The notes below the pieces were generated by a model. The model made no database searches, was not told the DNA's origin, and saw only the letters and a list, made by a program, of their open reading frames with translations. DNA of 64,000 nt from a virus. Of this stretch, positions 8,790 through 42,010 are shown in pieces. Numbering within the stretch: the stretch's first letter is position 1; each line of letters starts with the position of its first letter. The position numbers and the translations under genes were made by a program. Location: IMG/VR virus record IMGVR_UViG_3300032282_005553, positions 32,001-96,000 of that record; one strand, 5' to 3'.

Positions 8790-8800
8790 TAGGAATAAAA

Positions 8801-9133: not shown

Positions 9134-9135
9134 TT

Positions 9136-12422: not shown

Positions 12423-12467
12423 TAGTGTATTACTGTATATCACAAGACAACTATCTTAGGAGATAAA

Positions 12468-22411: not shown

Positions 22412-25400
22412 ATGGCTAAAGGATTTAATTTAACAGCAGAAATTAATCTAAGAGGACCAGCGAACATTCGTACGGTCGTTGCCGATATACGTCGTCAATT
22501 AGGTACTGTTTCAGCGAACGTTAATGTAAAAGTGAATCCTGCATCATCCAGAAATATAGCTGGATTAAATCAAGCATTAACTAATCTTAATAATACTCTT
22601 TCTCAGACGAATGTATTGGCAACCCAAGTTACGGCATCGCTAAATGCTTTGGCAACCGCTGGCGGAACAGCATCTACATCTCTTGGAGGACTCCCAAGAT
22701 CGATGGGCTCGGCAACAGCATCTCTTAATAGATTTAATGCTAGTGCAGCGAATACAGGAAATGCTCTTAGAGTTTCTCGAACAGAATTCGAGGAATTCGG
22801 ACGTCAAGCTGCTCTAGCAGTAAGAAGATTTGCTGCATTTTCTACTGTTACTAGCGTTGTATTCAAGGTAACGAACGCTATTAGTTCAGCATATACAGAG
22901 TTCGTTGCTTTTGATAAAGAATTAGTCAGAGTGGCACAGGTTACTGATTCATCACTATCTAGTTTATCTGGATTAGAAAGAAGCATCACAAATTTATCAA
23001 CATCGCTTGGTGTATCGTCACAAGACTTAATTAAAGTTAGTAGCACATTAGCTCAGGCAGGATTGTCTGCCAAAGACACAGAAAAATCATTGAAAGCTTT
23101 AGCATTAAGTGCTTTGGCTCCATCATTCGAGGGACTAAATGATACGGTCGAAGGTAGTATTGCTCTTATGAGACAGTTCGGTATACAGGCTGGCGATCTT
23201 GAAAAATCTTTGGGTTCTATCAACGCAGTATCTGCTAGGTTTGCTGTAGAGGCCGGAGATATTATTGCTGCCATTCAGCGCACTGGTGGTGTGTTTGCTG
23301 CTGCGTCTAGAGGAGTTAGCGAAGGTAAAGATGCCTTAAATGAATTTATCGCAGTATTTACTAGTATTCGTGCCACAACTCGTGAAAGTGCAGAGACAAT
23401 TGCTACAGGCTTAAGAACAATTTTTACAAGAATACAAAGATCTAGCACAATAGAAGCACTAAAAGAATACGGAGTCAATCTTACAGATATTGAAGGTAAG
23501 TTTGTTGGAGCATATAAAGCTGTAGAACTACTTAGTGGTGGACTTGGTAAACTAGACCCAAGAGATCTTAAATTCAGTAAGATCATAGAAGAACTTGGTG
23601 GATTTAGACAGATTGGTAAAGTTATCCCTTTGATTCAAGAGTTCGCAACCGCACAACAAGCGTTGGCTGTCGCACAAAAGGGTCAGGGATCTTTAAGTAC
23701 AGACGCCGCTACTGCACAACAGGCATTAGCTATCAAGATATCAAAGGTAAGAGAAGAATTTATCGCATTAATTAGGTCTGTATCAAAAAGTGATAGTTTT
23801 CAAAATTTTATCAATTTGAGTCTTGATTTAGCAAGTTCACTCATAAAGCTTTCTGATTCTGCAAAAGTTTTACTACCAGCATTAACTGCCATTGCAGCAA
23901 TTAGGGGTGCTAGTTTTATAACGCAATTTTCTAGAGGATTTGCTGGTGGTATAAGAACTCAACGCAATAACAATGGTGGTCCGATAAGAGGTTTCGCTAC
24001 AGGGGGCTTGGTACCTGGGCGCGGTGATACAGATACATATCCCGCTATGTTAACTCCTGGTGAGTTTGTTATACGTAAAAAAGCGGTAGATAAAATAGGT
24101 GTTACTAATTTACATAGAATTAACAGGGCATCTGGAGGATATATTCCAAAAGTAAAATCAGAAAGCTCTGAACCAAAACAATATTTTGATGGAGCAAGAT
24201 CACAAAGAACAGTACAAAAAACTAAAAATAGTGGAAGATATATCGCCCCCAAAGTTAGCATACCAGAAAGAGCACACATAGGTGGTGATCTTTATATAGA
24301 TCAATCCTTTTTAGTCAGATATCTAGAGAGATACTCTGCATCAAAACTAAAAAGATCTATAGGAGAATTTTCTGGTACAAAACCAGGCATGGCAGTAGGC
24401 GTTATTGGTGGAATGAGTAAAACAGAATATGATAAATTTATCAAAGAAAAATTAAATCTGTCAGTTAAAAAAAGAATACGTCTGAATTTCCCAAGAACAT
24501 TTAATCAGGCATTAAGAGCAACAGACCCAGGTCTAGTATTAAAGAACGATCTTGTAGACATCGTATCATCTGCTCCAGACTTGACCGATCCTTTAGGCGG
24601 CTTGTCTTCATCAGAAATCAATAAAATTAAACAAAATAGTATACGAAAAATAAGATCATTAAAAGCATTACCAGCATCATCTTATCGTAAAAACTTAGGC
24701 TGGAGATCTGACACACCAGACAGTCTCAAAAATGCCCCAGCATTTGATAGCGATTATCAGCTCAATCCTTTGGCTCAAATAATAGAATCTAGTGTCAATC
24801 AGACAACCAAACAGAAACTACAAAACAATATAGATTTATTATTCAGATCATCAAAAAAAGACGCAAAATATATCTCTAGCAAAACAGGCCAAGAAAGAAC
24901 AAGAACTCAATCAAGAGAATCTGCTAGATTATCTACTATAATGAAAAAATATAGCAATGATCCTAGAAATGTGCAAAGAAGAGAAGAGTCATATTATGAC
25001 AGAGGATTAGAAAACGCAATATCTTCTTTACCAGAAAAAAGAAGTCGTAAAAAATCACAAACTACTTCCAACTACCCAAAAGATCGTATACCATTTTATA
25101 TGTTAAATGCTGGTGGTTCAGTACAAAGATTTGCTGATGGTGGAGTTACCACTAGAAATGTGGGTTATATAGACAGTGATGCGCTAAATGATCCAGCAAA
25201 TAAAGCTTTAGTAGATGAGCAAATAGAAAAACTTAAAAAACAAGGAATCAAAATAGAAGGTGGATACAGAGGCTATAAACAATATCTATCGGACCTTGCT
25301 GCAAAAGCTCGTCAAGAAAAACAAATTGGAAGATTAACATCTATCGTAGGGTTACCCGGAGCCGGTAAGAGCACCATGATGATGGGTAGTTCTCAGGCTG

Positions 25401-28400
25401 ACAATGCCACAATGAGAAAAACTACCAGATTCCCCATATTGACACCTGAAGATATAACAAGATCATCCTCAGTAATAGACGTTACAGCAAGTGTAAATCC
25501 TAAAAAAATAGATGCTTCTCTACAAGCATCAGATAGAATAGTATCATTGTCTTCATCAACTAAAGAAGAACAACAAGAATTACGCAGAAGACGAAAATTA
25601 AGAAATAGACAAATAGAGTCCGGAACCTCAACAACCGGTTTTGGTCGCAGAGCAGGAACAACGGATTCCGCCCCAGTAGATAGTGGATATATTGAAGCTA
25701 TTTTACAATCAGAAATTAAAGACCCCAAGAAGATAAGAACACTTGGAGTGACACCAAAAGGATTTAGAACAAAAAGAGGAGATGATATACCAGAAATATT
25801 AAAGGAAAAAATTAATCTATATTATGGTAATTTTGGACCAACAACAGCAGGCCACGTTGCTGCTCAACAACAAGGAATGCAAGAATCCGCTAAAAGAGGT
25901 ATTTCAAAATCAATTGTGGCTGTTGGGATAGATACTCCAGTTAAATCTGGAGATGAGCACTCTACAAGATCAGCATTATTGAGCCAAAAAGAAAGAATTG
26001 CTTTAGCTAAAAAAGCATTCCCAGAGTCGTCTATAACCGCAGCGACAAAAGAAACCTTTGGTTTCGGATTACCATCTCTCTATGAAATAGAAAAGAGTGG
26101 AACAGACAGAAGAAGATTTGTTAAGCCATTGGGTGGTAGCACAGCCACAGTAGGAGACGAAAAAGGATCAAGTTCTTTACAAAAATATTTAGATGCTGGA
26201 TTCGATCCTAAAGATATATTAACTCTTGAAAGATTGGGTGGTATTAGTGGTACTAAAGTTAGAGAGGCTCTATTAAAGGGTGACACCAAAACCCTAAAAA
26301 AATTAACAAGTCCAGCAGTATTCGATATTCTTAGTAGAAATTCTGAAGTTTTTCAAAGAAGATCTAGTATTTTACCAAAAATTATGGAGCGTATAGGAAC
26401 TAGAGCAACTTCATCACTAGGAGCAATAGAGGCCGAACTTGCAAAATATCCAGGTAGACTAACTCCCAAGATCAAAGCTGAACACCCAGAATACGAAGAG
26501 ATAGTAGATAATCTTAGAAAACAAAGAGATAAAATAAAAGCAAAAGCTGAATCCCGTTCGGGATCGACAATGAGAAGATTATCTAGAATGTTTCCATCAG
26601 CATACGGTATTGATATTGGAGATACTCAAAAGTTTATGGCTGGAGAAGCAGTAAAAGCTAGGGTCGGCAGGAAAAAAGCAGAAAGACTACATGATACTGA
26701 CATTGGCGAGGCTAGAACAAAGACCGCTAGCGAAATTATTTCAGAATTGACCATCTCCAGTGCTCAACAAGTATTAACGGAAGCTGGTGGAGCTAGAGTT
26801 AATGCGAATACATTACTTAGAAAATCAAAACTTAATCCAGATGAGCTTAGACTAAAAGACAGTATTTTATCTGCATATGTCACTAAAGTTAATGCTAAAG
26901 CTAAAGAGGCAAGAGAAAGAGACTTAGGAGCAACAACATCCGCACAACAAGCTAAGACTTTATTTGGTGTCATAGGAATGTTTGGAAATGGTTTTCCGGC
27001 TGAAAATATAACTTTGGAAGATGGACTTAAAAAACCCACTACTGTTAGAGTATTTGGCGCTGTTTTAGATAAGAATAAAGCTGAAAAAGATGCTAGATTA
27101 GAACAAAGAAAGAATAGATTAAGCGCTATAAATACTAAAAGAACTATAAAAGGTAAATCGAGACTGTCAGACTCAAGAGCACAAGATATTGAAAATGCTC
27201 CCATGGCATCTGCTCTCAGCAAAGAGTATTTACAAGAAGATTTATCTGGAATTACAAAAAGGACGGGTATCACACCACAAATGACTCCTGCTCTTAAAAA
27301 ATCTTTAGCTGATAGTCAAGGATCTAAATTTCAAAATGATGTTACTGCAACCTTAATTAAAACTCCAGAAGGTAAGGAAATATCCGATTCTATGATGAGA
27401 GATAATCAGCAAAGAAGCATAGACTTTCCATATGGGATTGGTATGTCTATGGCCAAGAATTGGTTTAATAATGCTTTATTAGCGAATATACCAGTTGATG
27501 CCAAAAGAACACTAACAGGACCAAGAGGAAAATTACTTAGTAATATCACTAATTATTTAAAAACTAAAGGATTTGCTATAGGTGGACACATACCAGAAAA
27601 TAATGAAGATTCGGTTCCAGCACTATTGACACCCGGAGAATTTGTGATCAATAAAAAAGCAGCCCAAAGAATAGGTGCTGCTAAATTACATCAGTTAAAC
27701 AGAGCAGATAGAATAAAGGGTTTCAATAAGGGTGGTGCTGTTGGACCACAAAGATTTTTCCTAGGAGGAGGAGCATCTGCCAGACCAGGAGATAGTGCTA
27801 ATATAAATAATTTAATGGTTCCTGCTAGTTCTATCAATCAATTGAGACTAATAGTAGATGCTCTTGAAGAACTAGGAGTTAGTGCTTCAAAATCAGCAGA
27901 TCTACTTAAAAAAGGAGGAAGAGCTAGTATACAAGCAGCACATGCCGCATATGAAGCTGATATAGTAAGACTACGTATTGCTGGTGCTCCCATACAAACA
28001 GTAATTAATGCTGAAACACAATTAGCAAATATGAGGCAGCAAGCAACGAGACAAGTTGCAGCACAAAGACAACTTTCTGGAGTTGGTGGATCAAAACTAC
28101 AAAGAATAGATACGGCAGCCCAAAACAATATTCAGAGAATGGTCCAGAGAGCTCAAAATGCTGGAGTAAATCTTGATGAAAATCAAATGCGTCGCATTGA
28201 AGATTTAGGATATAGAAGAGCTGCTACGAGAGCGAGAATATCTCCAACACAAATGGCAGGATTAAATGGTAATGATTTACGTCAATTTATTAACAGTGCC
28301 ATGGGTGATCCTAAAACTTTTCAGCAAATGAATAAAACTTTTGAGACACAGAGAAAACAAGAAATATTAAGACAAATAAATATTGAAAGAGGAGTTACTA

Positions 28401-31400
28401 ACGATAAAAAAGAAATAGCAAATAGATCCAAAGAAGCCAGAATGCTCGCGAAGGAAGAATCTGATGCTCGTAGACAGATACTAAACCAAACTAGAGGATC
28501 GTCCGGTCCGGGCTCTGCTAGATCGCAAAGATTTAATCAGGCAATGTTTGGAGCTAGTTTTGTTTTACCAATGGTAGGTCAAATGATGGGTGGAGATCCA
28601 TCAAATGCAGGATCATCTGCTCAAGCTGGTCAGATCGCCGGTGCTCAAGGGGCCGTAAACATGGCTAGTACAGGAGCTATGGTGACGAGCATGGCCGCCA
28701 CAGGACCAATTGGAATAGCGCTAGGTGCTGCTGCTACGGCCGTTGCGACTTTTGGACAAGCCACTATGGATGCCCATAATGCAGTAATTGATTTTGAGAA
28801 ACAATTAGTTGCTAAAAAAGTAGAACATGCAATAGCTGATATCAATAAAATGTTTGAAAAATTAGCTAAAGATCTTAGTAATGTAGATATTCAAAATTCT
28901 ATAACCAAAAAATTAAACGAAGCCACCTCAATCTTAATTGATAATATGGAGTTCCAAAGAAGAACTGCTAAAATTTATTGGACAAATATCATTGATATGA
29001 TGGCAAATAATAATAATGCATCTAATGAAAGAAGTAGGATATTAGAAAAACATGGTACAGGGGCGTATCTGAATTCTACAGCGTTTGGACAAAATCCGGT
29101 TGGAATGACGCTTAATGCAATAGCTTTTGGTATACCTGATGCTATATACAAAGCATTTAATGGCAAAAGCATGTTTGCTGGATCAGAAGAGAAAGCGAAT
29201 CAAAATAGATACGAATATACCAAAATGATGATACCTGACCAGGCTAGAGAATCAGCTAGAGGGTTCGCTGACCTTGCCGATACTGCTACAAGATTAATAG
29301 AAGAAAAAATTAGATCAGGAATGAATGTTGATGATATCATTAATAATCCAGACTTTGAAAAATATGGAAGAAATTTGGCATTGGCTAATTCTTCGGTACA
29401 AGAACAAATTTTGACTCTTAGAAATAGTATTCTTGTTGCTGATGATGAGAAAAAAGCTAGAGAAGAATCAATTATCAAAACATATGCTGAAGAGGAAGCA
29501 AGAAGAAGAGCTTCTATTGTAGCAAGAGAAATCGAGATAAGAGAAGCTAAAAAAAGTAGCGCTAAAATGTCCAGATCTCTAGAAAGAATGTTCCAAAATA
29601 TGGAGCAAGCAATAAATAGAACAAATTTCGGACTGCAACGAATGGCTGATGAGTTGGATCTTGTAACATCTTCATTAACTGGACAGGCCAAGGCCGGAGA
29701 GGGAGTACTAAAAAGCATCAATGTACTACAAAATCCAAGAGCATACTCCTCAAGAGACTTCTCTGAAGCAAGTAATCAAGCGGCATCATTTTTTGGCGAT
29801 AATTCTGGATTAATGAATGGATTATTAACTTTAGGTAATGATATCGAAACAACAATTATGGGTACTATTAGTAGGACCCTATCGGAAAATGAAGGAGACA
29901 ATCAAGAAAAAATTTCTGTTGCTATTGAAAGGGCTGTAAAAACTAAATTAGCTGATCTTGCTTTGCCAGAAGACGTTTCTGCTAAATTAGCTAGAGAAGT
30001 AAAAAGAGCTCTTGATCAATTAAGAAAAGAAGGTGATCAGAAGATAGATTTTAGTCAACTAGAAGAACGCTTACAAGATATCAGTAAAGTTTTTGATAGT
30101 GCAAAAAGAGCACAAGAAATAGCCATAAAAGCTCTGGAAAACTGGAATAGTGCTCTTAATGCCTATGCAGAGAGTATGAATAGAATTGTCGAACTACAGA
30201 TCTCTTATCAAGCTAGAGCTAGAAAATCTACCGAACTACAAACGAATGCACAACTAGAACTTGCTAAAGTGCTCGGTAGAGATGTTTCTGTATCAGATAT
30301 TAAAGAAAAAAGAGACTCACAAATTCGTCAACAGACCGGTGGTTTAACATCTCCAGATAGTATAGCAAAAAACTTTGCTAACCTAGAAGAAAAACGCAGA
30401 CAACAAGAAGCCGCTATTGATGTAGCAAGAAATCAAGGAGCAAGAGGAGCCGAAGATTTCCAAAAGATGCAAAATAATTTGGCTAAGACCAATGTTGCTT
30501 TAAGAGAAAATTATGATGCTCTTAAAAATCTTGCTGAAAATTCTGATGTCGCTGCTGCTGCTCTCAATAAAGTACAAGAAGCTCAACAAAAACAACAAGG
30601 AAAAGTTAGTTTTATAGAAAAACTTGTGACCAGTACTCCAGACGAATACAACGCATTAAACAGAGCTGTTATTAGATTACAACGAAATATGAATGGCCAA
30701 ATGAATTCAATCAATAACAGTGTTGGTGCTCAAAAAGCATATGCAGAAGCTTTGAATGAAGGAGCTAGTGCTGCAGAAGCCATGAGAGCAGCTCAAGCGG
30801 CATTTGCTAATGAAAGAAAAGATACACTATCAGCATTAAATGATTTGTTACCATTCCTTGGCAATGGACAACAAGCTAATCAAATAAGAGCAAATACATT
30901 ACAATCTATGCTAAAAGAGAGTGGACTCGGCGTCTCTCCTCTGATGCAACAAATTTTAGATTCTTTAAGGAACCCTGAGCTTGATCCAGAAACACAAAAA
31001 GCAATTCAACTATATGAAGATGCTAATCAATTACAAATAGCAGCAAATAATTCTTTAGTAAAAATAGAACAAGCATTAGCTGATGCCACAGCAGATAAAG
31101 CAGCAAAAGCTATAGCATCTGCTTTAGAAAAAACAATATTGACTTTTAAAACAGCAGAACAACAAGATATTAATAATGGAGTTGCTCAAGGTAGAGCATT
31201 TGGTGGTATTATCTATGCTTCAGAAGGAATGTTTACTCCCAGAGGTACAGATACTGTCCCCGCTATGTTAACGCCGGGAGAATTTGTAGTTAATAAAGCA
31301 GCAACAGCTAAAAATTTAGGATTATTACAAAATATTAATAATAATCATTATAGCACTGGTGGAAAAGTTAATTATTATGCAGCCGGGGGTTATGTTAGCA

Positions 31401-34400: not shown

Positions 34401-37400
34401 AGTTTGGTGGAGATTTGCCACACGAAGAGTGGTTTAATAAAAGAATAGAAGCAGGAAATTTTGCTACCGGCGGTATGGTTTATGCTCAAGATGGATCTCT
34501 TATAAACTTTACTCCACGCGGCACAGACACTGTTCCGGCAATGTTGACTCCTGGAGAATTCGTTGTCAATAGAGCAGCAACCGCCAAGAATCTACCTCTC
34601 TTAAAACAAATAAATGGCAATAGAGGCTATAGCAGAGGAGGGGTTGTTAATTACCTACAAGATGGTGGCCAAGCCGAAGGCGCACCAGAATTTGATCTTG
34701 CAACTACCACCGAATATAGACCAGAAAATAGTTTTGGAAATAGAAGTATTTCAACTTTATCTAGAATACAATATGAGTCTAGATATGGTGTTCCCGGAGT
34801 CAGAGATAATGTAAAAATGATCTCTGAAGAAATATATAAAACACTCAGAGACAGATCGGCACAGGAATCAACACTAAGACAAGCTGGTACTCCAATTTTT
34901 TATGATGATAATAGTACAAGATCTAAAAGACAACAAGCAAACAAATTAAAATTAAATAAAAAAGAATATACAGAATTGTCTATTGCTGAAACCGAAAGAA
35001 GAATACCGCTATTTCAAAGACAAACAGAAGAATATTATCCAAATGGAACAAACTTTGATCATAGTGTTTTTGATAGAAAGATGCTAGATTTCCAAGGTTT
35101 GCCAACTATTAACTATTTAAATGCAGATATTAGATCACATGGTCAAAAAATTGCAGCAATGAAAGATGCTGTTGGAGCCAAGGAAAATGGATTCCCTGAT
35201 TTATTAGCCAAATATTTATTAGGAATGAAAGATTACGAAAGCACCTGGGCTAGTGTTGGACTAAGCTTTGCTCTAGATCTACAGAATATAATGCCAACCC
35301 TTAGTGGAGGTGCTAGTCAGGCTCTTATAGGAAAAGGTTTATCGTGGTTAGGCAAAAATACAGGACTTAAAAAGGCTATAACAATAGCTATGCAGAAAGG
35401 TAAATCAGCATTAAGTTCACTAGATAAAATTGCATTTAGACAAGTTGAAAAAGGAATAGATGAAATTCCTATTAAAGATTTGGGATTAGCAGATTTACCA
35501 GACTCTAAAACAGCACAATCGCTGTCTCCTAGTCCCACAAAGATACCCAGAGGAGGAGAAAGAATATCATTTGATGACAAAGCACTACAAATGTTTTTCC
35601 GTTCTGTTCCGACTAATGTTAAGGATTTTAAAAAGTCTTTCTGGCAAACAGTTTCTTCAAAAGGTATTTTTCAACAAGTTTCCGATTTTACCAGATTTAT
35701 TGGACTACCAGACAACGAAGCATTGCTTGGTGTTCCAGCTGCTATAGATATCAAACATCTTGAACCTGGCATCAGAGGTAGATTTGATTCTAATCTCGCC
35801 AGATTGAGTACTCAAGGGGTATCCGGAGCAGCATCAACAGGAAGAGGACTCGCTTCTGTACAACCATATGCAGAAGTAAATACTTTGTATCATGAGTTAG
35901 CTCATCAATTTTTAAATGGAATCAGAACACATCATCCTAAAGCATGGGAATTCTATCAGGAACGTGTTCAAGATATGTTTACTGATCACAGAAGTTGGAA
36001 TAATCTTGCAAATGCTTTTGATGCTATTGGAGGAAGCTATAGAAGTGAAGATGTTTTATATGGTGCTAGTTATAAGCTAAGAGATTTACAAAAAATATTA
36101 GATCAACATCCTGGAGACAAAGATCTAATAAGATTAGTTAGTAGAGCTACAAAACATAAAGATGCCGGTAGAGCTAGTTGGGCGAGCATAGATGAAGAAG
36201 TAACAGATGTATTGAGATCCAAGAGAGGATCACAGTACCTTGAGACTATGCAAAATAATGGATTAGAAGAATTCTTAACAGTAGTTGTTCAGAACGCTGG
36301 ACGACTTGACAAACAGATGAGACAAGCACTGGACACAACATTAGAAGCCATATTTCATAACTCTGGCATAGCAAGAGACAGAGGATTATTTGATAATTTT
36401 TATGCTGAACTTGATAAACCAACAATTTTCCAAAGAATAAAAACCGCAATATCTGCTAGGCTTAGTAGGCCAAAAGCAGCAACAAGGGTTCCAAAACCAC
36501 CAAGACCTCAAAAGCCAAAAACTAAAAATACTCCGGATAACGATATGATCGCTGGTCGTATTGGTCCAAAAAAATCTAAAACAAAATCAAAAAATAAAAA
36601 GGAGAAAAGAAGATGGCCGTGGATTATTCCTATTCCTATTTTTGGTTTGGGTGCGGCCGGGGTCTACGAGGCTACTAAGCAACCTTCTGCCCCTCTTTTA
36701 GAAGAAGGAGAGGGATTGGGCGGAGAATTTATTGGCGGAGGTGAAGGCGGCGGAATGATGCCAGAGATTACCTCTCCTAATCCAGCAAGAGAAGGCGCTA
36801 TGGGTGCTGCCGCGACACAACCAGGAGCAAACGGTGGACAAAATGGTGTTGGTCCTTCATTTCCGAATGAAGCCAGAAATAATGCTCAAGCAGCAGCACA
36901 AGAAGAAAAAGCTAGAAAATCCGGATGGAAAAAATCTAAAAAAGAAAAACCTTCGTCGTCACCTTTACCCGAATCTTCTGATTTTCCTGAAGCTATTCCT
37001 TTTTCTCCTTTAGAAGATACCAATGAAGAAACATCCTCTAATTTATTGAATAGACCGGGCGAGCCACTTAGAAGAGCTAAAGGAGGCATAGTTTATGCAT
37101 CAAATGGCTCATTGATTAATTTTCAACCAAGAGGCACAGATACTGTTCCGGCGATGCTAACGCCAGGAGAGTTTGTAGTTAATAAAGCAGCAACACAAAA
37201 GAATTTGCCAGCATTACAAGAAATTAATAGCAATACATATATGGCAGATGGTGGACTGTTAGGAAGACCAAAGGTCGTACAAGGGGTTACTCTAAATCCA
37301 AGAGATAAACTAACGCCAAGATTTAATAATATAGACTCTGCTATTAGTACTAGTAATAAAAACTTAAATACAGTATTACAGAATGAAAACTCACAAAATA

Positions 37401-40400
37401 ATAAATTAAATGAATTGCTTATAGATAGTAAAAATAACAAAAAGGTATTATCTCAAATTAATACCAAAACAGACTTTACTAATTCAAAAGTTAATGATAT
37501 AGCTAGAAACACCGGATCTTTAACAGATACGATCAATGCTTTTTGGCAAATGCTTTCCGGTCCCGGTCCTAGCGTGGAGATGCCTCCTAGGGTAATAAAT
37601 CGCAGCACGGGCGGCATAATATATGCTAGCGAAGGAACTCTTGTTCCTTATTCTCCAAAGGGAACAGATACAGTTCCTGCTATGTTAACTCCGGGAGAGT
37701 TTGTAGTAAATAGAGCTGCTACTAGCAAGAACTTGAGCCTATTAAAGAATATTAATAATGGATATAGTCAAGGTGGGATAATATATGCTGATGATGGAAT
37801 AAAAGTTCCAGGAACAGGAGACTTTACAACAACAGTAAGCGGAGCATCAACAAATAATATACAATCAAGTCAAACATTATCTGACAAAGAAATTGAATTA
37901 GAAAGACTCAGACAGTCCTTTGAACAAGCAAGAGCTAGATTCGAAAGAGAAAAAGAACAAAGAGATAGAATACAATATTCTCTCGCTTTAGTTAATGAAG
38001 GATTATCTAAATACAAAAATCAGAGAGGTGCTGCCTTAGATAGATTATTAGGCATAAGTAATCCATCGAACATATTAAATGATGAAAAAAGCTCGCTACA
38101 AAGAAAATTAACTTTTAATTTACTTGGTGTTGATAATGACGTCGGAGCATGGATTGCTAGAGCAGAACTTTTAAGTAAACAGCTTGCTGAAACTGGTGTT
38201 GGAATAACAGGAGCAACAGTTGCCGGATCGGCCGGTGCCGTAGCAGGCGGCGGAGTTGCTAGTCCAGTGACATCAGCAACATTGGGAACAGCGGGATATA
38301 TAGTTTCTGTAAGTGCATATAAAGATTTTCTAGGCGAACAATATAAGGAAAGAATGGATCTTTTACGACAAGCATTTCCTGGTCAATCTACGGTGACAGA
38401 TTTGGCCCCTGCTGTTATGGGAGTTTCTTCATTAGCCAAAAATGCTTATACTAACCTTGGGGCTATAGGTATAAAACAAGCCGGAAAAGAGATATCTTCG
38501 GAAGTTGCTGGAGACGCTATTGGTACAATATCAGCAGCTTTTGCAACTGGCGAACCCATCAGCTATAGTGCTCAAGATGCTATTTTGGCTTCATTAGGCA
38601 TTAAGCTTAGCGGACCGAGCAGATCAATTAGTACCACTAGATCCAGAGCATCAGAACAGCCGACAGCATCTTCTACAAAATTGTCACAACAGCCACCTCC
38701 GCTACCGAGTACTTTAGGATCCATTTTTGCTTCATATAAAAAAGCAATATCTAATAAAATAGATATGTTATTTAATAGATCTCCCGTAGCAGTACATGAT
38801 CAAGCACTTAAATATTTCAAAGAAAGAGGAGCAGTAAATTTTGATGAGATTAGAGAACACTTACGAGGAGAAGTTAAATCATCCAAAGGAGTTGCCGTTA
38901 GTGTCGGAATGATAGCTAAAATGCTCGGAGTAGAACCTAAATATCTTATAGCAGAAGATATGAGAGCGGTTAGAAAAACTATCGAAGGTGCCAGTGGATA
39001 TTATAGTGATTTTACTAGTCGTGATGCTATTAAAGTTGATGAGAACACCGGACTTGTTGCTGGAACTTTTAGTAGGGAACCGGGCGATATTGATCCGGGC
39101 GCAATATTAGCATTAAATAATGATAATAAAGTAAATAATAGTATTGTTTGGCATGAGATCATGCACTCCATGCTTACTAGAATGGGTAAAAATGGATATG
39201 GAAGATTTATCAAATTAATGCAAGATAATCAAAAATCTGTTTTGGGATATATAACTGAACGACCAGATCTATTTCGTAGTTATGGTATAACAGATATTGC
39301 AGATGGAGCACATTATGTAGGAAGAGCTCTTCAAGATATGCCACAATGGTCCTTTTTAAAGAGCGCAGCAGAGATGGCAAGTGATGATGATATTAAATAT
39401 GCCATAGCTCAAAAACAAGCTTACTTACAAAAATTAAGTACTGAAGATCCCGGTAGATTGTCTTCTCCTGATATATTTAATGATATAGTTCCAGGAACAA
39501 TGTTGAGAGTTTCACATATTACAGGCATGGAATCTGCAGAAAATCACTATGGTGGTATCAAAAATGCAATTAAATATGTTGAAGCAGTAATCAAAAGCGG
39601 TCGAGGTGTCGATCCAGCATTCCTTGCACATGCAGGGGATCATAATGCTAAAATCATGGATATATTGAGTGATCTTAATATTATTGAAGAAAGATCTGCT
39701 TTCGATTGGACGAAAGAATATGGGTATGAAGAATTTGCGACTCAACTTTTACAAAATTTTGATAGATTGGATCCAAAAGGACTGTCTTTCTTAAGTGATA
39801 TTATCTCTTCAGTATACGATGATAATAGAATCGCTGCTCTTAGGGATCCAAAAATTGTTTATGCTCAACTACAAAAAGTATTCAAGGGTTCTGGTTCAAA
39901 TATAGAGAAAGAACAATATAATGGATTAGAAACTCCTGCTTTATCTAGTGGAGGAATAATAAAATCTTTATACGCCAGTACTGGTAAATTGATTTCATAC
40001 AAGCCAATAGGTACAGATACTGTGCCAGCAATGTTGACTCCTGGCGAGTTTGTTGTTAATGCACAGGCTACAGCTAAAAATCTACCATTATTAAAATCTA
40101 TCAATGAAGGTAATTACAAGAGCAGTGGAGGAGTAGTATATCTTGACAATGGCGGAGTCGCCGACGAAAAAGATCTTGCTGCCGCTAATGGAAGAAATGG
40201 TTTCGAAAGAAAAATGGCAGTTGGAGCAAAACAGAGAAATAAACTCCAAAAAATTGCTGCAAAACCTGATGATACTGGTACTTTATGGGTATTTCTCAAT
40301 CCATCTCCTATGGTGATAGATAAAGAATTAGTTGCTTCAGGATTTACTGCTCTGAGCTTGTTGAAAAAAGATCTTACCTATACTGATGTTAATGAACCAT

Positions 40401-42010
40401 TAACAACACTTGATCTGGGAGCAACAATATATAGTAAAAGAGCTAGCTCACAGACAAAGGCATTGAAACATGTTAATGATAGATTAAATATCAAAGATAA
40501 AAAAGATCCCAAGAGAATTAAAAAAGCTATTACAGCAGGTGAGGCTTTGGATAGAGCTAGGAGAGAATACCAGAAACAAACAATAGGTAATAAAGTTATC
40601 TCTGAACTAGCTTATCAAATGAATATTATGCCCAAAGAATTTGAAATTTTAAATGATCAAGCCTATGAAAACCCTGACGATGTTAATAAGCATATACAAT
40701 CTATAGCGGAAGAAATTATCTTATGGAAGGATAATGATGCTAGAAAAAATAGAAATGGAATGAAAGTAGCACAAGAGTATGGTAAATATATTAATAGAAA
40801 TAGCGATATCAATGTTAAAAATAAAAACGCTTTGCAAGCCATAGCTTTGATGATGAGTGATAAAGATTTAGTTGTTCATGATATACGAGCACTTAATAAA
40901 AAATATCCTGTTTTTAAAGACACGGATCCGATAGAAATATTAAAAACTCAAACAAATGCTCAAAAAGACGAAAGAGAAAAACTAGAAGAAATTATTGATG
41001 GTCTTAAGAACTATGCTGCTGATGCTTATGTCAGCGATATTATTAATAGTCCTGAATTCCAATCTGGTGCTGGTATTTTATCTAGCGACGCATTTGCGGG
41101 CGTCACAGTTTCTAATTTTAGCGGAGGCAATTTTTCAGATCATGTTGTTACCACAAAACCAATAGTAAAAGCTGCTCAATTTAATAAAGGTGGTGTGGTT
41201 TACGCTGATGATGGTATGCTCATACCTTATCAGCCAAAGGGAACAGACACCGTCCCCGCAATGCTAACTCCAGGCGAGTTTGTAATAAATAGAGCTGCTA
41301 CACAACGTAATTTACCACTACTTAAAGCTATAAATAGTAACACATACGCTAATGGCGGAGTAGTATATGCTACTAAAGGACTAAATCCTCGTCAACAAGA
41401 ATATTATGATGCTAGACAAGCAAGAAAAGAAGAATACGAAAGAATGCAAGCAGAAAGACGAAGAGCATACGAGAACAAAAATAACGTAAATAGATTTAGA
41501 GATTCTCAAGGAAATCTTTTGAATCAGCAAACACGAAGAAATGTATTAATGGGCAGCAATCAGCAACAAAATATTGGTCAATCACGAAATAATACAAATA
41601 ATGTTGATCAGAACATGGGCCAATTTAGTAATAATTTACAAACTATTAATCAACTACTACAAACTTTTGGTAACAGCATCAACACATTTAATACTGTTAT
41701 ATCGCAGATAAATAGACAAATTACCGGTTCGGCTGAGCCAAGGGGTGTATCTAATAATAAAGGCACAGCGCCAAATCTGGACGGCATGGGCGGATTTGTT
41801 GCTAAATTTGATGAATTTATTAACCAACTAAAGGGTCTAAACTTGCCACCAGTAATTAATTTACAAGTTGCGCCAATTACATTGAATATAACCGGAGGAG
41901 AAGCACTTGCAAAAGCACTAGAAGGACCAATGAGTAATCAAATCAAGTCAGAAATAGCGGCAGCATTCCAAAGACTAAACGACGCTACAGAAGGCGCCAT
42001 TCAAGTTTAA
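22412..42010 (+). CDS. Giant tape measure protein (6532 aa), polyvalent, with eight repeated modules and enzymatic cargo domains
   Basis: AAGGA RBS; N-terminal TP901-family TMP core (FDKELVRVAQV...LAQAGL...ESAETIATGLRTIFTRI...GGFRQIGKVIPLI); canonical position after tube and chaperone genes; internal GLPGAGKS, TAGH/ISGTKVR, HELAH and HEIMH motifs. Confidence 0.9.
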   Translation: MAKGFNLTAEINLRGPANIRTVVADIRRQLGTVSANVNVKVNPASSRNIAGLNQALTNLNNTLSQTNVLATQVTASLNALATAGGTASTSLGGLPRSMGSATASLNRFNASAANTGNALRVSRTEFEEFGRQAALAVRRFAAFSTVTSVVFKVTNAISSAYTEFVAFDKELVRVAQVTDSSLSSLSGLERSITNLSTSLGVSSQDLIKVSSTLAQAGLSAKDTEKSLKALALSALAPSFEGLNDTVEGSIALMRQFGIQAGDLEKSLGSINAVSARFAVEAGDIIAAIQRTGGVFAAASRGVSEGKDALNEFIAVFTSIRATTRESAETIATGLRTIFTRIQRSSTIEALKEYGVNLTDIEGKFVGAYKAVELLSGGLGKLDPRDLKFSKIIEELGGFRQIGKVIPLIQEFATAQQALAVAQKGQGSLSTDAATAQQALAIKISKVREEFIALIRSVSKSDSFQNFINLSLDLASSLIKLSDSAKVLLPALTAIAAIRGASFITQFSRGFAGGIRTQRNNNGGPIRGFATGGLVPGRGDTDTYPAMLTPGEFVIRKKAVDKIGVTNLHRINRASGGYIPKVKSESSEPKQYFDGARSQRTVQKTKNSGRYIAPKVSIPERAHIGGDLYIDQSFLVRYLERYSASKLKRSIGEFSGTKPGMAVGVIGGMSKTEYDKFIKEKLNLSVKKRIRLNFPRTFNQALRATDPGLVLKNDLVDIVSSAPDLTDPLGGLSSSEINKIKQNSIRKIRSLKALPASSYRKNLGWRSDTPDSLKNAPAFDSDYQLNPLAQIIESSVNQTTKQKLQNNIDLLFRSSKKDAKYISSKTGQERTRTQSRESARLSTIMKKYSNDPRNVQRREESYYDRGLENAISSLPEKRSRKKSQTTSNYPKDRIPFYMLNAGGSVQRFADGGVTTRNVGYIDSDALNDPANKALVDEQIEKLKKQGIKIEGGYRGYKQYLSDLAAKARQEKQIGRLTSIVGLPGAGKSTMMMGSSQADNATMRKTTRFPILTPEDITRSSSVIDVTASVNPKKIDASLQASDRIVSLSSSTKEEQQELRRRRKLRNRQIESGTSTTGFGRRAGTTDSAPVDSGYIEAILQSEIKDPKKIRTLGVTPKGFRTKRGDDIPEILKEKINLYYGNFGPTTAGHVAAQQQGMQESAKRGISKSIVAVGIDTPVKSGDEHSTRSALLSQKERIALAKKAFPESSITAATKETFGFGLPSLYEIEKSGTDRRRFVKPLGGSTATVGDEKGSSSLQKYLDAGFDPKDILTLERLGGISGTKVREALLKGDTKTLKKLTSPAVFDILSRNSEVFQRRSSILPKIMERIGTRATSSLGAIEAELAKYPGRLTPKIKAEHPEYEEIVDNLRKQRDKIKAKAESRSGSTMRRLSRMFPSAYGIDIGDTQKFMAGEAVKARVGRKKAERLHDTDIGEARTKTASEIISELTISSAQQVLTEAGGARVNANTLLRKSKLNPDELRLKDSILSAYVTKVNAKAKEARERDLGATTSAQQAKTLFGVIGMFGNGFPAENITLEDGLKKPTTVRVFGAVLDKNKAEKDARLEQRKNRLSAINTKRTIKGKSRLSDSRAQDIENAPMASALSKEYLQEDLSGITKRTGITPQMTPALKKSLADSQGSKFQNDVTATLIKTPEGKEISDSMMRDNQQRSIDFPYGIGMSMAKNWFNNALLANIPVDAKRTLTGPRGKLLSNITNYLKTKGFAIGGHIPENNEDSVPALLTPGEFVINKKAAQRIGAAKLHQLNRADRIKGFNKGGAVGPQRFFLGGGASARPGDSANINNLMVPASSINQLRLIVDALEELGVSASKSADLLKKGGRASIQAAHAAYEADIVRLRIAGAPIQTVINAETQLANMRQQATRQVAAQRQLSGVGGSKLQRIDTAAQNNIQRMVQRAQNAGVNLDENQMRRIEDLGYRRAATRARISPTQMAGLNGNDLRQFINSAMGDPKTFQQMNKTFETQRKQEILRQINIERGVTNDKKEIANRSKEARMLAKEESDARRQILNQTRGSSGPGSARSQRFNQAMFGASFVLPMVGQMMGGDPSNAGSSAQAGQIAGAQGAVNMASTGAMVTSMAATGPIGIALGAAATAVATFGQATMDAHNAVIDFEKQLVAKKVEHAIADINKMFEKLAKDLSNVDIQNSITKKLNEATSILIDNMEFQRRTAKIYWTNIIDMMANNNNASNERSRILEKHGTGAYLNSTAFGQNPVGMTLNAIAFGIPDAIYKAFNGKSMFAGSEEKANQNRYEYTKMMIPDQARESARGFADLADTATRLIEEKIRSGMNVDDIINNPDFEKYGRNLALANSSVQEQILTLRNSILVADDEKKAREESIIKTYAEEEARRRASIVAREIEIREAKKSSAKMSRSLERMFQNMEQAINRTNFGLQRMADELDLVTSSLTGQAKAGEGVLKSINVLQNPRAYSSRDFSEASNQAASFFGDNSGLMNGLLTLGNDIETTIMGTISRTLSENEGDNQEKISVAIERAVKTKLADLALPEDVSAKLAREVKRALDQLRKEGDQKIDFSQLEERLQDISKVFDSAKRAQEIAIKALENWNSALNAYAESMNRIVELQISYQARARKSTELQTNAQLELAKVLGRDVSVSDIKEKRDSQIRQQTGGLTSPDSIAKNFANLEEKRRQQEAAIDVARNQGARGAEDFQKMQNNLAKTNVALRENYDALKNLAENSDVAAAALNKVQEAQQKQQGKVSFIEKLVTSTPDEYNALNRAVIRLQRNMNGQMNSINNSVGAQKAYAEALNEGASAAEAMRAAQAAFANERKDTLSALNDLLPFLGNGQQANQIRANTLQSMLKESGLGVSPLMQQILDSLRNPELDPETQKAIQLYEDANQLQIAANNSLVKIEQALADATADKAAKAIASALEKTILTFKTAEQQDINNGVAQGRAFGGIIYASEGMFTPRGTDTVPAMLTPGEFVVNKAATAKNLGLLQNINNNHYSTGGKVNYYAAGGYVSSIQKENKRTEENFKETQDKFLDLDDPGLREVLSGSEGSKIYQIPGRFIKVKEDALAQTPDRNAYNAGAMPRWDLSKIFDAHQDGNIVPGYSMGMQMKRTSTFLYGNIDWPLIYPIPGVTNTEPVEIGNGSFIGGLTEDKRISLATKPYVVSDEKKYLEQLQRLKITPEFIKKKFAWISNAAHPVRQAIDGDILDYPTDVTPQRNEPRGIVPYQAIRSSMLYSTDAGTELNAQNKIYARIYHNPEKKMNRAVGAGATNMPTFETGGPFEPTHDGYFNMEARTFDIDKKKVIPSADAQKIGKYNQDLYQILVKTYKALVPGAGQPRLSDLPLSDSGGKIGVFDSFQKQLANLYNGITPYENFIGEALDILDIDESAKAKNFTVISAEAATQQMVQDYIEKQVKNKGGKQPFSGGNPISIGIAGAPPGLDWVTEDLFDIKELATGNTKEFPVLINILPSEISEEFEKRAAEATKGSSPIKTSLFNHDGELSLDLAGGKKAKFPYFSTYTKYTGPLWDTATNTYSDKNNIKDFFLANPLDGNTPANIFKGLDISNNRLFDKTKPIDFDDRGNVSLSYDQAKLTELIDLYRVDKDKREADKIDAASMALKAASIRFKLNKDVGPLGALIKADAKVGDNDIFSGFTDQADKSMSIGDFLIEAAQKYAEQTTEEAKTATGEVADSKFNKEGFADQKKPFLDTLKGLTLGSLRIFGRRPLPGFPRAWFYALGGGRAYSLLKNNRMTLPIGKNIATYLTGMLAMNSGPGAQASTLASMSTNLRAFNYFEDLRTLIQGAFLTYQQLSQSDTSSIVQLLKNSRDAFGNLDLSTDAVEDIFRSLGATQSFNAAGSQALGGDYQRNLANQLAGSKIRVVKQSGKIEDVDAANIPYKNYTDLMALALNPYNEYTSKDIRSGIFDKLTQDISTATNQYGGPMFSQKTRAFLLNNLSTLKDWYAGNGNWLGQDYLFDKVANPDSKDRGDKFKQNLAIGNNLWSEANIAHRNLGAAVKFGGDLPHEEWFNKRIEAGNFATGGMVYAQDGSLINFTPRGTDTVPAMLTPGEFVVNRAATAKNLPLLKQINGNRGYSRGGVVNYLQDGGQAEGAPEFDLATTTEYRPENSFGNRSISTLSRIQYESRYGVPGVRDNVKMISEEIYKTLRDRSAQESTLRQAGTPIFYDDNSTRSKRQQANKLKLNKKEYTELSIAETERRIPLFQRQTEEYYPNGTNFDHSVFDRKMLDFQGLPTINYLNADIRSHGQKIAAMKDAVGAKENGFPDLLAKYLLGMKDYESTWASVGLSFALDLQNIMPTLSGGASQALIGKGLSWLGKNTGLKKAITIAMQKGKSALSSLDKIAFRQVEKGIDEIPIKDLGLADLPDSKTAQSLSPSPTKIPRGGERISFDDKALQMFFRSVPTNVKDFKKSFWQTVSSKGIFQQVSDFTRFIGLPDNEALLGVPAAIDIKHLEPGIRGRFDSNLARLSTQGVSGAASTGRGLASVQPYAEVNTLYHELAHQFLNGIRTHHPKAWEFYQERVQDMFTDHRSWNNLANAFDAIGGSYRSEDVLYGASYKLRDLQKILDQHPGDKDLIRLVSRATKHKDAGRASWASIDEEVTDVLRSKRGSQYLETMQNNGLEEFLTVVVQNAGRLDKQMRQALDTTLEAIFHNSGIARDRGLFDNFYAELDKPTIFQRIKTAISARLSRPKAATRVPKPPRPQKPKTKNTPDNDMIAGRIGPKKSKTKSKNKKEKRRWPWIIPIPIFGLGAAGVYEATKQPSAPLLEEGEGLGGEFIGGGEGGGMMPEITSPNPAREGAMGAAATQPGANGGQNGVGPSFPNEARNNAQAAAQEEKARKSGWKKSKKEKPSSSPLPESSDFPEAIPFSPLEDTNEETSSNLLNRPGEPLRRAKGGIVYASNGSLINFQPRGTDTVPAMLTPGEFVVNKAATQKNLPALQEINSNTYMADGGLLGRPKVVQGVTLNPRDKLTPRFNNIDSAISTSNKNLNTVLQNENSQNNKLNELLIDSKNNKKVLSQINTKTDFTNSKVNDIARNTGSLTDTINAFWQMLSGPGPSVEMPPRVINRSTGGIIYASEGTLVPYSPKGTDTVPAMLTPGEFVVNRAATSKNLSLLKNINNGYSQGGIIYADDGIKVPGTGDFTTTVSGASTNNIQSSQTLSDKEIELERLRQSFEQARARFEREKEQRDRIQYSLALVNEGLSKYKNQRGAALDRLLGISNPSNILNDEKSSLQRKLTFNLLGVDNDVGAWIARAELLSKQLAETGVGITGATVAGSAGAVAGGGVASPVTSATLGTAGYIVSVSAYKDFLGEQYKERMDLLRQAFPGQSTVTDLAPAVMGVSSLAKNAYTNLGAIGIKQAGKEISSEVAGDAIGTISAAFATGEPISYSAQDAILASLGIKLSGPSRSISTTRSRASEQPTASSTKLSQQPPPLPSTLGSIFASYKKAISNKIDMLFNRSPVAVHDQALKYFKERGAVNFDEIREHLRGEVKSSKGVAVSVGMIAKMLGVEPKYLIAEDMRAVRKTIEGASGYYSDFTSRDAIKVDENTGLVAGTFSREPGDIDPGAILALNNDNKVNNSIVWHEIMHSMLTRMGKNGYGRFIKLMQDNQKSVLGYITERPDLFRSYGITDIADGAHYVGRALQDMPQWSFLKSAAEMASDDDIKYAIAQKQAYLQKLSTEDPGRLSSPDIFNDIVPGTMLRVSHITGMESAENHYGGIKNAIKYVEAVIKSGRGVDPAFLAHAGDHNAKIMDILSDLNIIEERSAFDWTKEYGYEEFATQLLQNFDRLDPKGLSFLSDIISSVYDDNRIAALRDPKIVYAQLQKVFKGSGSNIEKEQYNGLETPALSSGGIIKSLYASTGKLISYKPIGTDTVPAMLTPGEFVVNAQATAKNLPLLKSINEGNYKSSGGVVYLDNGGVADEKDLAAANGRNGFERKMAVGAKQRNKLQKIAAKPDDTGTLWVFLNPSPMVIDKELVASGFTALSLLKKDLTYTDVNEPLTTLDLGATIYSKRASSQTKALKHVNDRLNIKDKKDPKRIKKAITAGEALDRARREYQKQTIGNKVISELAYQMNIMPKEFEILNDQAYENPDDVNKHIQSIAEEIILWKDNDARKNRNGMKVAQEYGKYINRNSDINVKNKNALQAIALMMSDKDLVVHDIRALNKKYPVFKDTDPIEILKTQTNAQKDEREKLEEIIDGLKNYAADAYVSDIINSPEFQSGAGILSSDAFAGVTVSNFSGGNFSDHVVTTKPIVKAAQFNKGGVVYADDGMLIPYQPKGTDTVPAMLTPGEFVINRAATQRNLPLLKAINSNTYANGGVVYATKGLNPRQQEYYDARQARKEEYERMQAERRRAYENKNNVNRFRDSQGNLLNQQTRRNVLMGSNQQQNIGQSRNNTNNVDQNMGQFSNNLQTINQLLQTFGNSINTFNTVISQINRQITGSAEPRGVSNNKGTAPNLDGMGGFVAKFDEFINQLKGLNLPPVINLQVAPITLNITGGEALAKALEGPMSNQIKSEIAAAFQRLNDATEGAIQV
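23993..41380 (+). repeat. Eight dispersed copies of a xxxGG...D(T/S)(V/Y)PA(M/L)LTPGEFV...xxxGG module: 23993-24139, 27572-27769, 31193-31390, 34460-34669, 37073-37255, 37601-37798, 39941-40156, 41180-41380
   Basis: Counted directly in the translation; GTDTVPAMLTPGEFV is invariant in copies 3-8 while codons differ at synonymous sites. Confidence 0.95.

Follow-up and report, generated by a model that had tools for sequence, protein, structure and literature searches.

Introduction

In tailed phages, oligomers of the tape measure protein occupy the lumen of the tail tube; their C-termini dock in the hub, and infection leads to their expulsion (PMC10721106, PMC10038345). Single enzymatic additions to such proteins are known already, namely pb2C of T5, the RNA polymerase of P23-45 and a motif in the tape measure of TM4, and the principle of delivery is therefore not new. 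The present analysis concerns a predicted tape measure protein of 6,532 amino acids (aa) from an uncultured phage, in which a ~78-aa element that occurs once in gpH of phage lambda is present in eight copies (modules R1 to R8), dividing the chain into nine blocks (B0 to B8). Its gene lies in a stretch of 64,000 nucleotides, hereafter the window, which comprises bases 32001-96000 of the IMG/VR virus record IMGVR_UViG_3300032282_005553 (136,889 bp, estimated to be 92% complete). The reading preferred here, to which a probability of about 0.6 is assigned, is that of a composite tape measure, in which canonical parts are combined with lineage-variable, module-fenced cassettes that are delivered as pre-made enzymes.

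In lambda, gpH (853 aa) is cut during tail maturation in a glycine-rich region near its C-terminus, close to the module, which yields gpH* and gpHC of ~14 kDa, the latter staying at the tip (PMC12617516). The protein described here shares the module with gpH, and in both cases a Gly/Ala-rich hydrophobic stretch precedes it, in the former case ahead of R1; gpH, however, has one module only and no enzyme domains. T5 pb2 is cut after R1127 in the course of morphogenesis, which separates an enzymatic, muralytic piece with a metallopeptidase motif; this piece is retained in the tail, and its expulsion into the periplasm has been proposed (PMC10038345). Hence, pb2 represents a one-cassette version of the model proposed here, and both proteins are cysteine-free, although pb2 has a single cargo of 92 residues and no detectable module, in contrast to the seven blocks of up to 1,147 aa in the phage under study.

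Giant tape measures with a folded enzyme have been described as well. The 5,002-aa tape measure gp96 of P23-45 includes a virion RNA polymerase as a fusion partner, which is active in the host immediately upon ejection, also carries a metallopeptidase and membrane segments, and is said to define, as a whole protein, the extraordinarily long tail of this phage (PMC10770324). Judged by the published description, gp96 and its counterparts in P74-26, G20c and TSP4 resemble the 6,532-aa protein in being giant tape measures with a folded enzyme; on the other hand, gp96 has one N-terminal RNA polymerase where the present protein has a TP901-type N-terminus, and neither repeated joints nor arrays of cassettes are described for it.

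Arrays of diverse and swappable enzyme domains, ADP-ribosyltransferases among them, are a feature of the long polyvalent proteins (PMC7824862), which occur in phages and conjugative elements and are thought to be injected together with the DNA (Iyer et al. 2017, PMC5512222). Polyvalent proteins are not tape measures and differ from the 6,532-aa protein in the vehicle as well as in the repeated joint; the terms 'tape measure', 'tape-measure' and 'tail length' are absent from the text of PMC5512222. The tape measure of TM4, which holds a peptidoglycan-hydrolase motif, and Douge gp16 are examples of small motifs within tape measures of ordinary length rather than of large-cassette arrays, and gp46 of JBD30 (1,158 aa) displays a single, weak module match as compared to eight modules here. 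For tape measures with multiple modules, no description was found in the full-text literature, subscription journals and supplements lying outside this search. Nor did this search reveal any case in which multiplied copies of a gpH-type element fence an array of large, exchangeable cassettes.

Gene, modules and reading frame

The tape measure gene occupies positions 22412-42010 (+) of the window and consists of a single, ATG-started frame, the longest in the window. With 19.6 kb it takes up ~14% of the 137-kb genome, so that its content must pay for itself. PF10145 (PhageMin_Tail) matches residues 191-395 (E 2e-23; 83.8 bits vs a cut-off of 33.2) and TIGR01760 (tape_meas_TP901) residues 154-447 (E 1e-24; 87.3 bits vs a cut-off of 28.8), and several PHROG tape-measure families match the protein in addition; these profile matches identify it as a tape measure protein, encoded by a large and uncultured phage. 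A megablast comparison of the whole gene with GenBank phages gave no match.

The exact string LTPGEFV is found eight times in the protein, at residues 547, 1739, 2953, 4045, 4916, 5092, 5875 and 6285. A hidden Markov model (HMM) built from the copies delimits, together with the alignment, eight modules of 69-80 aa each, all encoded on the + strand: R1 (23960-24193, aa 517-594), which is preceded by the Gly/Ala-rich hydrophobic stretch; R2 (27542-27748, aa 1711-1779), the most divergent copy; R3 (31190-31417, aa 2927-3002); R4 (34457-34696, aa 4016-4095); R5 (37070-37309, aa 4887-4966); R6 (37598-37831, aa 5063-5140); R7 (39944-40183, aa 5845-5924); and R8 (41177-41413, aa 6256-6334), which takes the place of the single module in ordinary tape measures. 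The consensus reads xxGG-IIYAxxGxLIxxxPxGTDTVPAMLTPGEFVVNkaATxKNLpLLkxINxxxYxxGGxVY, following the element pattern FxxGG-hhYA...GTDTVPAMLTPGEFVVN...L..IN...GG-hVY. Among the eight copies 17 columns are invariant, while an alignment of 108 copies retains 8 invariant and 11 nearly invariant columns. An initial annotation, made from the letters of the window, had described an open reading frame (ORF) of 6,532 aa with a TP901-type N-terminus and eight copies of one module; the frame, the PF10145 and TIGR01760 matches and the module HMM all agree with it, and the block sizes it proposed (527/~1140/~1140/~1020/~800/~115/~710/~340/~210 aa) come close to the measured 516/1116/1147/1013/791/96/704/331/198 aa.

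For a gene that contains repeats and stems from a metagenome-derived contig, an artefact has to be considered, be it a chimeric assembly across the repeats or several genes read as one. At the DNA level, however, the module copies are only 63-75% identical, and the protein is far better kept, which means that the module is maintained as protein and could not have misled the assembler. Moreover, the 19.6 kb are free of stops, and nineteen independent records, which were searched whole, contain open, module-holding frames of 3,960-7,737 aa with the same order of parts. P0016, a partial relative, matches collinearly from B3 to the C-terminus at 39-85% identity. An assembly artefact was rejected on the grounds of the divergence of the repeats at the DNA level and of the independent records with the same architecture, and the chance of any such error is practically negligible.

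Cassette mosaicism across the family

With the N-terminal 529 aa as query, 50 related loci of 55-70% identity were retrieved from IMG/VR, and 28 full or near-full tape measures of 2,328-7,733 aa, carrying 2-9 modules, were taken from them (hereafter the relatives). In a search of the module profile against 1.84 billion representative proteins, 16,109 matches were obtained at E<=1e-3, 4,754 at E<=1e-10 and 877 at E<=1e-30, the last figure counting clusters at 50% identity. The best 150 of the module-profile matches bear 3-12 copies each and measure 935-7,872 aa. A second set of 149 database proteins (the representatives) consists of top matches of this module-made search and is consequently selected for many copies and not unbiased. 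Relatives and representatives together span 2-12 modules and 935-7,872 aa.

From both sets, 130 proteins start with the conserved N-terminus; they measure 2,289-7,872 aa (median 4,368). In 125 of these 130 family members the first module begins at residue 480-700, and the last module likewise ends <=450 aa from the C-terminus in 125/130. The blocks between the modules measure 56-3,662 aa, and 55 of the 497 blocks are shorter than 200 aa.

The individual blocks differ widely in their distribution. As judged by BLASTP, B0 is present in 28/28 relatives and 122/149 representatives, and B2 in 25/28 and 110/149, respectively. The corresponding counts are 11/28 and 37/149 for B1 (partial in both sets), 7/28 and 29/149 for B3, 4/28 and 16/149 for B4, 1/28 and 1/149 for B6 and likewise for B7, and 0/28 and 0/149 for B5. 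B8 was detected in 8/28 and 45/149, but rises to 21/28 and 109/149 with iterated profiles; the profile termed B2b then reaches 28/28 and 140/149, a figure to be read with the proviso that the B2b and B6a profiles may pick up composition and also match helical parts of other blocks. For a similar reason cluster c0 of a block clustering, which merges helical blocks by single linkage, is not used as evidence.

Further insight comes from the positions at which homology breaks off. High-scoring segment pairs (HSPs) of >=200 aa between the 6,532-aa protein and 177 others were considered, ends <=15 aa from a protein end being ignored. Internal HSP ends fall <=30 aa from a module in 352 of 466 cases and internal starts in 127 of 337, as compared to an expectation of 16.8%. 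At 65-73% identity in the N-terminal domain, the nearest relatives reach only 2,614-4,351 aa in their tape measures, and what they have in common with the 6,532-aa protein hardly exceeds B0, a part of B2, the modules and the C-terminus. A domain with an HExxH motif, discussed below, varies in position from ~100 to 6,600 among different proteins. Thus, conservation extends to the N-terminal domain, B2, the modules and the C-terminal end, in contrast to the remaining blocks, which come, go or move. The initial annotation had asked whether cargo blocks vary among relatives while the repeats and helical blocks are conserved, and whether domain boundaries are related to the repeats. Both are favoured by the BLASTP and profile counts and by the breakpoints at the modules; since the content is not fixed and the boundaries coincide with the repeats, the family does not show fixed collinear content.

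The clustering of homology breakpoints at the modules, together with the changing position of cassettes, could also be accounted for if the repeats were mainly linkers for recombination at the DNA level, serving cassette exchange without any function of the protein element. This explanation is very improbable: the peptide is strongly kept in spite of the low DNA identity of the copies, as the invariant columns among the eight and the 108 copies attest, and it is conserved as a single copy in the tape measures of lambda, JBD30, Gordonia and Brevundimonas phages and others that have no cassettes.

The module in ordinary tape measures

The module aligns with PHROG tape-measure profiles close to their C-terminal ends, for instance at 648-744 of 810 or at 759-821 of 900. 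A tblastn search with one module copy against 50,697 GenBank phage records detected 148 places in 126 records, and all matches listed in these records fall under annotated tape-measure genes. Most of the matching records have one module place, whereas some Gordonia phages have two; in Brevundimonas phage Kikimora a module copy is located ~280 aa before the end of the 2,340-aa tape measure. On the basis of these matches, the module is identified as a conserved near-C-terminal element of ordinary tape measures. The 6,532-aa protein departs from the canonical state of a single copy near the C-terminus, as it has eight copies, of which R8 alone stands in the canonical place.

A profile of the eight copies, compared with all chain sequences of the PDB, detected lambda gpH at residues 751-790 (E 0.0056). 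The same search gave Douge gp16 (1,699 aa) weakly, in the two stretches 964-1027 and 1412-1460 (E 0.068 for the protein), and the unrelated chain 1wcu_A at E 0.46. Against gpH alone, the HMM of 108 copies reached a conditional E of 2.3e-7, and by eye the whole FATGG...GGYV element extends over ~727-785, directly after the Gly/Ala-rich hydrophobic stretch. In gpH, residues ~690-817, the module region, are not resolved in structures (PMC12617516); what these do show is the stretch 818-849, which docks on gpI in the tip (PMC12617516, PMC10721106). In JBD30 gp46, a weak module match at residues 1015-1067 (E 6.6e-4 vs that single protein) coincides with residues 1022-1066, which the authors of the JBD30 study predicted as a 'hook' made of two helices and a beta-hairpin that follows a Gly/Ala-rich stretch, and they speculate that, once the chain has been cut at 1066, the hook serves to anchor the tape measure in the baseplate (PMC11445458).

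Regarding the function of the module, the favoured, though still tentative, view is that modules mark maturation cuts that free the cassettes, by analogy to the cut beside the homologous element of gpH and to the cut of T5 pb2. A serious possibility, to be held with somewhat less confidence, is that the modules act as uncut docking or 'hook' joints which hold the chains in register or catch in the hub or tube in the course of assembly and exit, so that the tape measure would stay one chain, as proposed for the fused polymerase of P23-45. The predicted hook of JBD30, which would anchor in the baseplate, is a homologous stretch, and in T5 pb2* is anchored in the hub, after its opening, by the C-terminus that the cut creates (PMC10038345); in addition, no cleavage is reported for P23-45 gp96, the term 'cleav' occurring once and 'proteoly' nowhere in the text (PMC10770324), and the module monomer is predicted without a confident fold, as would be expected for an element that folds on a partner. 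Conversely, eight hooks per chain have no obvious partner stoichiometry, the tape measures of lambda and T5 are in fact cut near this region, and inter-module blocks as short as 56-200 aa would be odd for pure spacers.

As a separate observation, T5 pb2 features, at ~1121-1150, a Gly-Gly, two hydrophobic residues and a Tyr that follow the R1127 cut within three residues, which by eye recalls the start of the module; with an HMM score of -2.7 it is not relied on.

Conserved blocks and predicted enzymes

Among the conserved parts, B0 (22412-23959, +; aa 1-516) comprises the TP901-type N-terminal domain, ends in a hydrophobic stretch at aa 486-504 and is kept at 56-65% identity in all 28 relatives. 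B2 (27749-31189, +; aa 1780-2926) is a conserved helix-rich core with a Gly/Ala-rich hydrophobic part, a candidate for both ruler and channel segment, and sits between two modules in the relatives inspected. The fraction of helix-forming residues is 0.41-0.59 in blocks 0 and 2, with few Pro and Gly; the initial annotation had called these blocks helical, and their composition, the sole basis of that term, fits. B8 (41414-42010, +; aa 6335-6532 plus stop) contains a Q/N-rich stretch and a conserved C-terminal end of ~80 aa. Its Q+N fraction of 0.26, as compared to 0.22 in B5 and 0.11 in the whole protein, agrees with the Q/N-rich C-terminal block noted initially. In lambda, T5, JBD30 and Douge the last ~30-40 residues of the tape measure sit in the hub, and B8 is for this reason a candidate tip-docking end.

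Variable block B1 (24194-27541, +; aa 595-1710) holds an enzyme unit at aa ~900-1401 (25109-26614, +), recognized by a Walker A motif at aa 980, an alignment of ten sequences (A2), a PDB profile and Pfam. Invariant positions of A2 are G141 and K142, T301, G303 and H304, as well as I434, S435, T437 and R440. The motifs (H/T)xGH and ISxTxxR are the two signatures of HIGH-superfamily nucleotidyltransferases, and T301-x-G303-H304 and I434-S435-x-T437-x-x-R440 are kept in 10/10 sequences of A2. The A2 profile matches MJ0951 (E 1e-5), nicotinamide mononucleotide (NMN) adenylyltransferase (E 0.0056) and phosphopantetheine adenylyltransferases in the PDB, and among the A2 members Pfam finds HIGH_NTase1_ass in 6/10 and CTP_transf_like in 2/10. 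Weak but consistent signals therefore point to a putative P-loop NTPase and HIGH-class nucleotidyltransferase with no nameable substrate, which recurs in 9/28 relatives and 27/149 representatives. Of the three sub-domains originally proposed for this block, one unit is thereby confirmed, whereas the flanks 595-880 and 1420-1710 are undefined.

Two further domains share an HExxH motif. Domain 1 (35816-36382, +; aa 4469-4657), found by a profile match and with HELAH at 4494, belongs to the variable block B4 (34697-37069, +; aa 4096-4886), in which it is followed by a basic Pro/Gly-rich tail. Domain 2 (39119-39823, +; aa 5570-5804; HEIMH at 5581) is a distant paralogue of domain 1 within the variable block B6 (37832-39943, +; aa 5141-5844): the domain-1 profile also finds aa 5570-5804, both copies keep the invariant columns, and BLASTP aligns B4 with B6 over the EEFxT region at E 0.002. 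In an alignment of 16 sequences H, E, H, a Tyr and the EEFxT motif are invariant, the HExxH motif is kept in 24/24 homologous domains, and the invariant Glu of EEFxT is a candidate third metal ligand. A sequence profile of the domain gave nothing significant in the PDB, and no free-standing homologues were found among proteins of 220-700 aa, the class searched. The zincin fold is characterized by an active-site helix packed on a beta-sheet. The AlphaFold2 model of the domain is all-alpha, with a predicted local distance difference test (pLDDT) score of 83.9, but the modelled piece starts only 35 residues before HExxH, and hence an N-terminal sheet may have been cut off. The designation of these blocks as peptidases can be upheld as far as the invariant HExxH and the conserved EEFxT are concerned, while no peptidase family or fold was matched; at most, the domains are putative metallohydrolases.

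The HExxH domain was found in 5/28 relatives and 18/149 representatives, whereas modules are universal; hence, it cannot be the general module-processing enzyme. Self-processing by embedded HExxH domains was accordingly rejected as a general mechanism.

In the tail of B4 (window 36410-37069, aa ~4660-4886), a strongly basic run rich in Lys and Pro precedes a short segment of hydrophobic character, after which Gly and Pro predominate in a further stretch (Pro+Gly 0.21-0.28 per 100 aa); this tail occurs in this phage only (0/28 relatives, 0/149 representatives).

As to the other blocks, B3 (31418-34456, +; aa 3003-4015) includes a part, 3340-4011, that is common to a subset of relatives, always directly after B2 and a module, and that reaches the next module in the relatives inspected; its profile detects it in 7/28 relatives and 27/149 representatives. 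No usable protein-atlas match was obtained for B3, and neither PDB searches with the single sequence or the profile (A5) nor Pfam on 8 members gave any result. B5 (37310-37597, +; aa 4967-5062) is a short Asn/Gln-rich spacer restricted to this phage, for which the initial annotation had suggested a coiled coil, and B7 (40184-41176, +; aa 5925-6255) is rare (by profile, 2/28 relatives and 3/149 representatives). Single-sequence PDB searches returned nothing for B4, B6 and B7.

In relative G010, a complete 229-kb genome, a domain of the ADP-ribosyltransferase exoenzyme type (PF03496; 29 bits vs a cut-off of 23.4) is encoded between the first and second modules of a 7,737-aa tape-measure frame (G010:C1:152891-153472, minus strand). 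The presence of enzyme signatures of kinds that act on cytoplasmic substrates is thus supported, with a nucleotidyltransferase in the phage under study and an ADP-ribosyltransferase in its relative.

Ruler length and cysteine avoidance

The length of the tail scales with that of the tape measure: in JBD30, a tail of 180 nm goes with a tape measure of 1,158 aa, which corresponds to ~0.155 nm per residue. At this value the whole 6,532-aa protein would span ~1 micron, and B0 plus B2 alone (1,663 aa) ~250 nm. It is therefore conceivable that the protein is a plain ruler, with the whole chain measuring a tail of ~1 micron, the non-helical blocks serving as ruler or passive filler, and relatives simply differing in tail length. 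The tail of P74-26 is nearly 1 micron long, and within the family the length of the tape measure shows a moderate correlation only with the number of modules (r 0.55), which suits a ruler as well. However, about half of the protein has a composition unlike that of helices, relatives with 65-73% identity in the N-terminal domain differ two-fold in length, and B0, B2 and the C-terminus are constant in a family whose lengths range from 2,289 to 7,872 aa. Moreover, conserved catalytic signatures are not explained by filler. A plain ruler is accordingly improbable; as it would be compatible with delivery too, it is a partial rival only.

A further property covers canonical parts and all cassettes alike, the enzymes included. 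The tape measure has no cysteine among 6,532 residues, as compared to 508 among 37,771 (1.34%) in the other ORFs of the phage of >=100 aa. The 28 relatives have 4 cysteines in total and the 149 representatives 35 in 615,465 residues; lambda gpH, T5 pb2, JBD30 gp46 and the Kikimora tape measure have none. We infer that cysteine avoidance is a sign of the whole chain sharing the fate of a tape measure, which is kept inside a narrow lumen and has to cross the envelope.

Separately, with regard to cysteine content in this genome, an ORF of 2,710 aa downstream of the tape measure (53889-62021, +), which matches neither Pfam nor PHROG families, has 80 cysteines (2.95%), about twice the phage average of 1.34%.

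Proposed mechanism and its weighing

In the composite tape measure preferred here, the canonical parts would be the TP901-type N-terminal domain, the helix-rich core of ~1,150 aa and a C-terminal tip-docking end, while each cassette would end in a copy of the ~78-aa element, the modules forming the joints between cassettes. By analogy to lambda, T5, JBD30 and Douge, the whole cysteine-free chain would be built into the tail lumen as an oligomer with its C-terminus anchored in the tip. At infection it would be expelled ahead of the DNA, a step that is established for tape measures in general, whereupon the conserved helical and hydrophobic parts may form a trans-envelope conduit. The cassettes would then act as pre-made enzymes in the envelope or cytoplasm, namely the P-loop/HIGH unit and the two HExxH domains here and the ADP-ribosyltransferase in the relative. 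The sequences show the architecture, the module homology, the mosaic pattern with its breakpoints at the modules, the enzyme signatures and the cysteine avoidance, whereas loading, ejection and cutting, as well as the assignment of the parts that set tail length, are inferred; probably the tail carries ready-made proteins into the host.

A more far-reaching version holds that the tail lumen delivers a changeable set of effectors, in which the gpH-type element has been multiplied into a joint for the exchange of cassettes among phages, cutting or a hand-over to the hub takes place there in the course of maturation or exit, and a string of separate enzymes is fired ahead of the DNA. This version in its entirety is rather doubtful, and it is equally unlikely that, jointly with such delivery, the effectors comprise a nucleotide-handling kinase/nucleotidyltransferase, ADP-ribosyltransferases and metallohydrolases.

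The initial annotation had compared the arrangement with delivery by MuF and polyvalent proteins. MuF or another head-associated domain is the typical anchor of polyvalent proteins, and no MuF family is among the Pfam matches at E<=0.1 over the whole 6,532-aa protein. Two kinds of enzyme signature here and the ADP-ribosyltransferase of the relative may point to a polyvalent-type array, most blocks being unassigned, but given the lack of a MuF domain, and a polyvalent-protein literature that makes no reference to tape measures in PMC5512222, the comparison does not go beyond an analogy.

Several points weigh against delivery of cassettes as enzymes and against cutting at the modules. The phage and its relatives are known here from sequences alone, and cultured phages in the GenBank set carry two module copies at most. 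In lambda, both the cut site and the catalyst of gpH cleavage are not known (PMC12617516); the cut in JBD30 is a speculation of the authors that derives from a prediction; and in T5 pb2, the sole tape measure with a mapped cut, the module HMM finds no module (score -2.7). AlphaFold2 models the lone module, from the 108-sequence alignment, with a pLDDT of 59.5 and one confident helix; by itself the module is thus predicted to lack a fold, and a structural link between module and cutting is missing. Such a lone module fits an element that would take shape on a partner or in an oligomer, without proving anything, and a predicted complex of three module copies, made without controls, scored 0.01 vs a mark of 0.42, which speaks neither for nor against binding.

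With respect to the enzymes, the copy of the nucleotidyltransferase unit in the window stays below the Pfam cut-offs (25.4 vs 26.7 bits for PF16581 and 16.6 vs 21 for PF01467), and so does the SprT-like match of the HExxH domain (16.5 vs 25.6 bits). The model of the latter has no known peptidase fold: Foldseek against the PDB found none at E<=0.001, and the best wide match of VIA-align (Z 6.5) concerned generic helical bundles. B3, B5 and B7 received no family assignment in the searches made, and a Pfam scan of the variable parts of 19 relatives (79 segments, 44,797 aa in total) yielded only 5 families at E<=0.001. Furthermore, P23-45, with its giant tape measure and folded enzyme, has a very long tail, which implies that large non-helical parts need not lie outside the ruler. 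Finally, ordinary tape measures are cysteine-free as well, and the avoidance of cysteine is consequently an argument for a whole chain that is handled like a tape measure, not for cargo in itself.

Genome neighbourhood and host

Upstream of the tape measure gene, ORFs at 7641-16709 match tail-fibre PHROGs, whereas the six ORFs directly upstream and five large ORFs downstream could be named by neither PHROG nor Pfam, no tube, chaperone or hub gene being assigned by these matches. Ahead of the tail-fibre-like genes lies a giant ORF (window 1-7629, +) that extends upstream of the window (G000:C1:29307-39629) and measures 3,440 aa in the whole record. Right after the tape measure, a 1,447-aa ORF (42025-46368, +) shows a sub-threshold match to a beta-roll ice-binding repeat (PF21300, E 0.0016); by its position it could be a distal tail or hub protein. 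A search of the genome, which is 92% complete, gave no match to the sheath families PF04984 and PF17482, and the tail is therefore probably non-contractile, which is suggestive and not proof. The sole match in 185,579 species genomes is RFVO01000110.1, a 4,830-bp contig of a Chitinophagia metagenome-assembled genome that is 57% identical in the N-terminal domain; this hints, if weakly, at a host among the Bacteroidota.

Significance

The architecture is striking and widespread, as one tail vehicle carries up to seven blocks across a whole uncultured group, and the exciting steps would be cutting and delivery. If the blocks are delivered, this would constitute a second, tail-based route for the injection of protein arrays beside the head-based polyvalent proteins. 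It would also provide a large reservoir of early-acting phage enzymes, because most blocks match no family. In addition, the eight-copy protein would offer a sensitive substrate for finding out what the gpH-type element does. Under the more far-reaching version, work on this protein would also show the role of the element in lambda, where cut site and catalyst have not been known since 1974.

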